A DNA stretch of 64,000 nucleotides from Escherichia phage Turkey5. Positions within the stretch are counted from its first letter, which is position 1. Every line of letters begins with the position of its first letter. The notes under the pieces were generated by a model. It was given only the letters and a program-made list of their open reading frames with translations, did no database searches and was not told where the DNA came from. The translations under genes and the position numbers were made by a program. The DNA lies in the sequence record PQ471516.1. One strand, 5' to 3'. Below, piece after piece: positions 50,150 to 50,293 of this stretch.

Positions 50150-50293
50150 ATGGTAAATCACGATATTGAAATGATCTTAGATGAAGTAAACGATACATTC
50201 TTCAATGTAACTTTAGAGTTCACAGAAGAGGGTTTAGAAGACGCTTGGGCTGCTTATGTTGAATATGCAGCAACATATGGGGACAACCAATGA
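50150..50293 (+). CDS. Small acidic hypothetical protein (47 aa), not in supplied ORF track
   Basis: Strong RBS AAGGAG 8 nt before ATG 50150; stop overlaps next start (ATGA). Confidence 0.4.
   Translation: MVNHDIEMILDEVNDTFFNVTLEFTEEGLEDAWAAYVEYAATYGDNQ

Follow-up and report, generated by a model that had tools for sequence, protein, structure and literature searches.

In phage T7, gene 5.9 lies a few genes downstream of the DNA polymerase gene. Its product is a small, helical and dimeric DNA mimic with a pI of 4.0 that inhibits RecBCD, and smallness combined with acidity is taken as typical of DNA mimics (PMC9836394). In phage T4 the packaging ATPase and the neck dock on the portal clip, and packaging is inhibited by a 24-residue peptide from the clip, which binds gp17 (PMC4493910). 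As to the timing of gene expression, PA5oct, a distant relative of the phage considered here and the only one with temporal RNA-seq, has its DNA metabolism and replication genes among the middle and late transcripts, while its early genes are grouped in the terminal repeat (PMC7318152).

The window analysed here, 64,000 nucleotides of Escherichia phage Turkey5 (PQ471516.1), carries a 47-codon gene squeezed between the gene for a family-B DNA polymerase and that for a 101-residue protein (Table 1). Positions 49000–51500 are 99.2% identical to Escherichia phage vB_EcoM_JNE01 (Asteriusvirus, 356 kb) and 80–87% identical to 121Q, PBECO4, phAPEC6, A4, Turkey3 and others. A sequence-only reading of the window had presented the small gene as unlisted, which is true of the ORF track supplied with the window but not of the public databases: the JNE01 counterpart is deposited as hypothetical protein WOL22796.1 (100% identical), that of 121Q is gp611 (YP_009102198.1), and the protein matches phrog_29025, a PHROGs family of unknown function, with residues 4–46 aligned on positions 5–47 of the 49 in the profile (hmmscan E = 1.2e-11, 45.2 bits). 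The gene is not new; it is an ordinary small hypothetical phage gene with a public annotation. Matches to the small protein were obtained by tblastn in 35 Escherichia and Salmonella jumbo-phage records, and the gene lies between the polymerase gene and the homologue of 121Q gp612, on the same strand, in JNE01, 121Q, Turkey3, A4, UE-S1, ph0011 and Ecwhy_1. A word-indexed search of 5.8 billion proteins placed the family in 15 clusters, every one of them on contigs the size of E. coli jumbo phages, and a profile search run exhaustively over 1.84 billion representatives returned only six. By these searches the family is a clade-restricted orphan; in the distant Rak2-like phages Kaldavass, XbC2, Munch and RaK2 the homologue of the 101-residue protein directly follows the polymerase, with no such ORF.

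Table 1. Features at and around the small gene, with positions in the window.
Feature	Position	Strand	Basis or assignment
Terminator-like hairpin before the polymerase gene	47071..47090	+	Consensus scan; inferred 5' boundary of the unit
DNA polymerase gene, family-B (T4 gp43-like)	47129..50137	+	ORF list; upstream neighbour
Shine-Dalgarno AAGGAG	50136-50141	+	Sequence; overlaps polymerase TAA
47-codon gene, product MVNHDIEMILDEVNDTFFNVTLEFTEEGLEDAWAAYVEYAATYGDNQ	50150..50293	+	Member of phrog_29025 (121Q gp611 family)
ATGA stop/start overlap	50290..50293	+	Sequence
Coupled 101-aa gene	50290..50595	+	121Q gp612 family, phrog_36847; proposed partner
Promoter-like site (extended -10, TATAAT)	50602..50631	+	Consensus scan, 10/12 matches; inferred 3' boundary of the unit

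It is all but certain that the 47-codon ORF encodes a protein of this Asteriusvirus jumbo phage. The frame runs, as had been claimed, from an ATG at 50150 to a TGA at 50291–50293, with AAGGAG at a spacing of 8 nt (50142–50149) and with ATGA where it overlaps the gene that follows. The window holds 110 ATG-initiated ORFs of 40–70 codons, so length alone is uninformative, and the AAGGAG motif alone proves little, since its 16 copies on the + strand of the window are about the 15 or so expected from base composition. Both figures would suit a frame left open by chance in the short gap between two genes, a reading that we find scarcely credible in the light of the remaining data. In codon-usage log-likelihood the ORF ranks first of the 110, its 0.89 bits per codon being on a par with the flanking genes (0.72–0.84), and the remaining two forward frames at the locus score −85 and −52 bits. 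The slot was compared in seven genomes belonging to four or five sub-lineages (window/JNE01; 121Q, ph0011 and UE-S1; A4; Turkey3 and Ecwhy_1). The sequence-only reading had let the gene stand or fall by conservation of the frame in relatives, and in all seven lineages the frame is open over 46–51 codons with no internal indels; it is the only one free of internal stops throughout, the other forward frames having 3–10 stops each. The dN/dS ratio, 0.12–0.19 for unsaturated pairs and at most 0.28 overall, is well below 1, and the Shine-Dalgarno sequence is itself conserved. An RNA element in place of a gene was considered and rejected, with no Rfam match at E values up to 1 and no significant structure. 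The chance reading is effectively excluded by these sequence comparisons, and the earlier reading is supported in taking the ORF for a real, translated-looking gene.

The ribosome-binding site is physically merged with the end of the upstream gene, the polymerase stop codon (TAA at 50135–50137) lying within it, and TAAGGAG or TAAGGA is kept at the polymerase stop in all Asteriusvirus lineages. The assignment of the upstream gene agrees with the records of JNE01, 121Q, A4 and Turkey3, where it is named DNA polymerase, and with the Pfam DNA_pol_B domain recorded for the homologue on the related contig L013. The claim that the small gene has the best Shine-Dalgarno sequence in the neighbourhood stands, AAGGAG being found in full before no other gene on the + strand from about 44.2 to 58.3 kb, although its advantage over the GGAG or AAGGA of the neighbouring genes is modest. 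RNA around the start (50110..50200) has a minimum free energy of −7.7 kcal/mol, compared with −13.1 for shuffled sequences (z = +2.16), and is less structured than 198 of 200 shuffles; this open initiation region fits efficient initiation at 50150. The conserved Shine-Dalgarno sequence and ATG also argue that 50150 is the right start and that the short form is the correct one. Several gene calls start too far upstream, within the 3'-terminal part of the polymerase gene, and give versions of 58–70 residues (P0003, P0007, P0010 and P0014; L009 2456–2638; L011 2441–2638).

Two public records at this locus are faulty. The label 'structural protein' in CRJP21 (L012, OQ708376.1) is rejected, as the product names in that record are out of register: the polymerase is named 'structural protein' and GroES 'terminase large subunit'. 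In CMSTMSU (L017, MH494197.1, positions 560–1003; flagged UNVERIFIED) a single CDS of 147 residues merges the small ORF with the next gene, and it is due to a 1-nt deletion in a G-run and not to a natural fusion; the polymerase stop region of that record has a similar defect. For annotation, then, the present analysis carries little weight beyond confirming the call and the start at 50150 and identifying several records as over-extended.

The product is a 5.4-kDa protein with five Asp, seven Glu and neither Lys nor Arg, giving a net charge of −12. It is the most acidic product of the 51 likely genes in the window and the sole one without Lys or Arg. An AlphaFold2 model built on a 12-sequence alignment predicts helices at residues 4–19 and 26–45 with a mean pLDDT of 66 (moderate confidence), the best-predicted part being helix 2, most of which reaches about 85; the product is thus predicted to be an extremely acidic two-helix hairpin. 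The residues V13, L22, E26, A32, W33 and Y36 are invariant, the model placing V13 in the first helix, L22 in the loop and A32, W33 and Y36 in the second, while E12, N19, V37, G44 and an aromatic residue at position 40 are nearly so. The conserved positions are therefore mostly non-polar, with two acidic ones in addition. Searches with the small protein gave no match in Pfam or PADLOC and no significant match among PDB sequences, where the best profile hit was to unrelated proteins at E = 0.2, and a Foldseek search of the model against the PDB also returned no match. Between the window and the other lineages the small protein is 31–51% identical, the 101-residue neighbour 60–64%, and the polymerase and the 243-residue protein encoded beyond it 85–90%, so that the two small genes change far more quickly than those for the polymerase and the 243-residue protein. 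Net charge is held at −9 to −12 in all lineages even where identity falls to 31%.

This acidity invites the reading of a stand-alone effector, in which a helical and probably oligomeric mimic of nucleic acid or of acidic tails would block a DNA-binding protein of host or phage, such as RecBCD, a nuclease of restriction or defence, or a part of the replisome to which acidic tails bind, and the adjacency of the 101-residue gene would be incidental. The high and maintained charge favours such a role, as do the fast evolution and narrow distribution typical of arms-race genes and the analogy with the small, highly acidic DNA mimic gp5.9 of T7 (PMC9836394). Other observations run counter to it: the model and profile resemble no solved protein, DNA mimics included, no defence-related match was found in PADLOC, the invariant residues are mostly hydrophobic or aromatic and not a fixed acidic pattern, the gene sits in a replication cluster whereas the early genes of PA5oct lie in the terminal repeat, and related lineages manage with only a weakly charged helix fused to the next protein, as described below. 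We regard an independent effector, the main rival of the partner role preferred below, as possible but doubtful. The sequence-only reading had suggested, on the grounds of position, that small early proteins next to the polymerase are candidates for host take-over or regulation. Extreme acidity is the only feature that hints at such a role, and the comparative evidence points more towards a joint role with the downstream protein.

The designation 'early' is unsupported. Our consensus scan from the polymerase gene to the end of the 101-residue gene found no terminator-like and no strong promoter-like site, and with neither a promoter nor a terminator between the polymerase gene and the small ORF the timing of the latter should follow that of the polymerase; the early genes of PA5oct lie in the terminal repeat. 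The putative 3' boundary lies between the 101-residue and 243-residue genes, in a region where the number of promoter-like sites is not above chance, and the scan places a terminator 3' of the 243-residue gene. Such pattern matches are in keeping with one transcription unit made up of the polymerase gene, the 47-codon gene and the 101-residue gene. A literature search found no Asteriusvirus transcriptome, and no virion proteome or expression evidence for the small gene.

The coupling to the next gene proposed by the sequence-only reading is supported by a tight stop/start juxtaposition that is kept in every lineage while its sequence varies, taking the form of ATGA in the window, of an 8-nt ATGAGTAA overlap in 121Q and A4, and of TAA-T-ATG in Turkey3. 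RNA folding at the junction revealed no hairpin beyond that of shuffled sequences, so that any coupling would act by proximity and not by the unmasking of an RNA structure. The arrangement raises the reading of a translational relay, in which the ORF would hand ribosomes that finish the polymerase on to the start codon of the 101-residue gene and the peptide itself would matter little. The overlap of the ribosome-binding site with the polymerase stop, the overlapping or abutting junction at the other end, the rapid divergence of the peptide and the existence of phages (Kaldavass, XbC2 and Munch) in which the downstream gene comes straight after the polymerase gene are all in keeping with a relay. 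It is nevertheless improbable, given purifying selection on the peptide over the whole dN/dS range of 0.12–0.28, six invariant residues, a conserved net charge, a near-constant length without internal indels, a Shine-Dalgarno-like sequence of the downstream gene's own within the end of the small ORF in each lineage, and a junction with no sign of a sequestered start.

Two ways of joining the small ORF covalently to its neighbours were also rejected. In the window (50135..50152) the ORF is in the frame of the polymerase and separated from it by the TAA and four codons, but this shared frame is absent in 121Q, A4 and Turkey3; read-through of the polymerase stop is discounted and the shared frame is probably incidental. 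A programmed frameshift fusing the 47- and 101-residue products would have to operate at an offset of −1 in the window and +1 in 121Q, A4 and Turkey3, and inspection of the junctions by eye showed no common slippery site.

The 101-residue protein itself consists of an N-terminal α/β domain (residues 1–55), a helix at 70–80 and a disordered tail ending in WNTKF, with a net charge of −6, of which the N-terminal domain contributes −5. Its family comprises 69 clusters, always encoded right after the polymerase gene. The longer members (143–209 residues) match Pfam Portal_T4 (PF07230) over positions 201–266 with 24–43 bits against a cut-off of 22.9, and are 46–47% identical by tblastn to the portal genes of the same phages, while the profile of the whole family matches the portal of the window (36722..38485) with E = 7e-12 over 'GGSTSLMDAAYNPLSILEDYFFP'. 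The motifs copied from the portal clip in the longer members are RRxFxIDxG… and AAYNPLSILEDYFFP, in the entries P0040, P0044–P0046, P0059 and P0066 and at L006 2001–2573. On this sequence evidence the downstream protein is a descendant of a form that carried a portal clip copy. The version in the window, which aligns to the long form over residues 2–67 only, has largely lost the clip segment: BLASTP of the 101-residue protein against the window's own portal gives E = 2.3, and the profile of the Asteriusvirus sub-family against the portal a probability of 1.7%. Fission of the longer downstream protein was examined as a source of the 47-residue ORF and rejected, since the profile of the 47-residue family gave the long proteins of Munch and P0040 only scores that shuffled controls also reach and failed to pick up that of Kaldavass.

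The C-terminus of the polymerase (…ALNNGFFTW, window 50105..50137) and the aromatic ends of the downstream family (50581..50595; WNTKF, WNTKY, …RNW) resemble C-terminal clamp-binding tails, and the genes for both proteins lie just upstream of the 243-residue gene, which is named 'sliding clamp' in two GenBank records. That label comes from those two records only, as the 243-residue protein has no sequence match in the PDB or Pfam. Beyond it, at 51490..51997, follow a Zn-ribbon protein of 68 residues and a GroES-like co-chaperonin, in an order (243-residue protein, Zn-ribbon, GroES-like) that is conserved from Asteriusvirus to RaK2, whereas Kaldavass, XbC2 and Munch have a phosphoesterase gene right after the 243-residue gene instead.

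The slot after the polymerase takes further forms in other relatives. L013 and L018, metagenomic contigs from different samples, stand at the same distance from 121Q and A4 as the window does (88–93% identity for L013 over the 200 C-terminal residues of the polymerase) and carry a separate ORF of 56–59 residues with a net charge of −12 that overlaps the downstream start (L013 3832–4011; L018 94–273), the two copies sharing 52 of 56 residues. Relative to these, L014 and L019 have lost about 110 nt and carry a 1-nt indel at the junction, so that the last 20 or so codons of the ORF (…YSAYNEYSKFMENN) are in frame on the downstream protein. The Klebsiella phages RaK2, K64-1 and KP13-7 have an alignable extension of 25 residues fused to the same protein, with a charge of −2 in RaK2. 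All five fused forms keep only the last helix of the slot ORF, and the coexistence of split and fused forms suggests that the L013-type ORF is functionally linked to the downstream protein through that helix. The coordinates of the slot in other relatives are 660–1160 in L014, 1501–2001 in L019, 1926–2198 in L004 and 329–691 in L015. A scan of viral contigs for further L013-type loci found none.

Whether the L013-type ORF belongs to the family of the window is a matter on which the tests differ. Against the HMM of the window family it scores 3.8 bits, when shuffled sequences reach up to 9.5, and hhalign gives a probability of 0.7%. In an alignment anchored on the flanking genes, the ORF is co-linear with the window family, its Trp and Tyr codons falling opposite those of helix 2, and its semi-global score against six family members is reached by 70 of 3000 composition-matched shuffles (z = 2.35, p ~0.02), a true family pair giving z = 11.6 in the same test. 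Homology is accordingly no more than suggestive at the level of sequence. The L013/L018 ORF and the fused forms occupy, like the window gene, the position directly behind the polymerase stop; the ORF also overlaps the downstream start and, in L013, has the same net charge of −12, and its C-terminal helix presents Trp/Tyr…Tyr…aromatic residues at i, i+3 and i+6 as does that of the window family. They differ in the length of the ORF, which has two insertions relative to the window family, and in the downstream protein, whose portal-clip-like segment is intact in the L013-type and fused lineages and eroded in the window.

We tentatively prefer, short of calling it probable, a reading in which the 47-residue protein binds the coupled 101-residue protein non-covalently, as a small subunit or adaptor. 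In its favour are the coupling kept across lineages, the split and fused forms in relatives, the conservation of aromatic residues in helix 2 and the fast evolution that the two proteins have in common. The small gene would be co-transcribed with the DNA polymerase gene, ribosomes would initiate at the strong, unstructured site overlapping the polymerase stop, and the stop/start overlap would lead to the 47- and 101-residue proteins being made together. The aromatic helix 2 could then dock on the N-terminal domain of the 101-residue protein, leaving the acidic remainder of the small protein displayed as a working surface. Several points weigh against such a partnership. The kinship of the L013-type ORF with the window family is only suggestive; the 101-residue protein is also net acidic, so that there is no charge complementarity between the two; the fused remnants keep little acidity, and the acidic part may have a separate role that is dispensable there; and many phage genes that are unrelated lie side by side and are coupled.

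A bolder extension combines the detachable module with the history of the downstream protein. The slot would encode a fast-evolving detachable acidic module and a free-standing copy of the portal clip, and the pair would bind terminase or neck proteins off the capsid, thereby linking replication to packaging, with the 47-residue protein as the acidic terminase-like or DNA-like half. We consider this a long shot. If the pair did act on packaging or neck proteins it would, speculatively, be an unusual regulator to find among replication genes. Taken more modestly, the slot after the polymerase is a hotspot in which a small acidic ORF may persist, give way to another or become joined in part to the protein downstream, and the gene described here adds one more fast-evolving, very acidic micro-protein to those of jumbo phages.

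Elsewhere in the window, some 390 nt downstream of the portal gene, positions 38876..39733 encode a protein of 285 residues with long Glu/Asp runs and a net charge of −59 (−0.21 per residue), which is possibly of the scaffold or prohead-core type. On the − strand, a single ORF of 3346 codons with a good coding score (6813..16853) specifies a giant protein of net charge −189. A strong two-way terminator-like hairpin with a stem of 12–15 bp (52716..52749) separates the convergent genes for a 241-residue (+) and a 225-residue (−) protein, the homologues of which are virion structural proteins in the annotation of 121Q.

Compared with its described relatives (121Q gp611, JNE01 WOL22796.1 and the remainder of phrog_29025), the small protein is alike in position, length class (46–51 residues) and acidity, the copy in the window forming the most divergent branch of the family and being the only member without Lys or Arg. 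It shares with T7 gp5.9 and other small acidic phage mimics such as lambda Gam a small size, helices and a pI of about 4. When set against Ocr, Gam, gp5.9 and Arn as a group it agrees in size and negative charge and not in sequence or fold: the 47-residue protein is predicted to form an antiparallel hairpin, while gp5.9 is a parallel coiled-coil dimer with a short β-sheet brace, and the likeness to gp5.9 would thus be one of composition only. As a gene pair, the 47- and 101-residue genes differ from coupled pairs of bacteria and phages in that dependence of downstream translation on the small ORF is not predicted from structure, no masking RNA structure being evident and the downstream gene having its own Shine-Dalgarno-like sequence. 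They resemble such pairs in the ATGA overlap, the common strand, the absence of intervening signals and the conservation of the arrangement.
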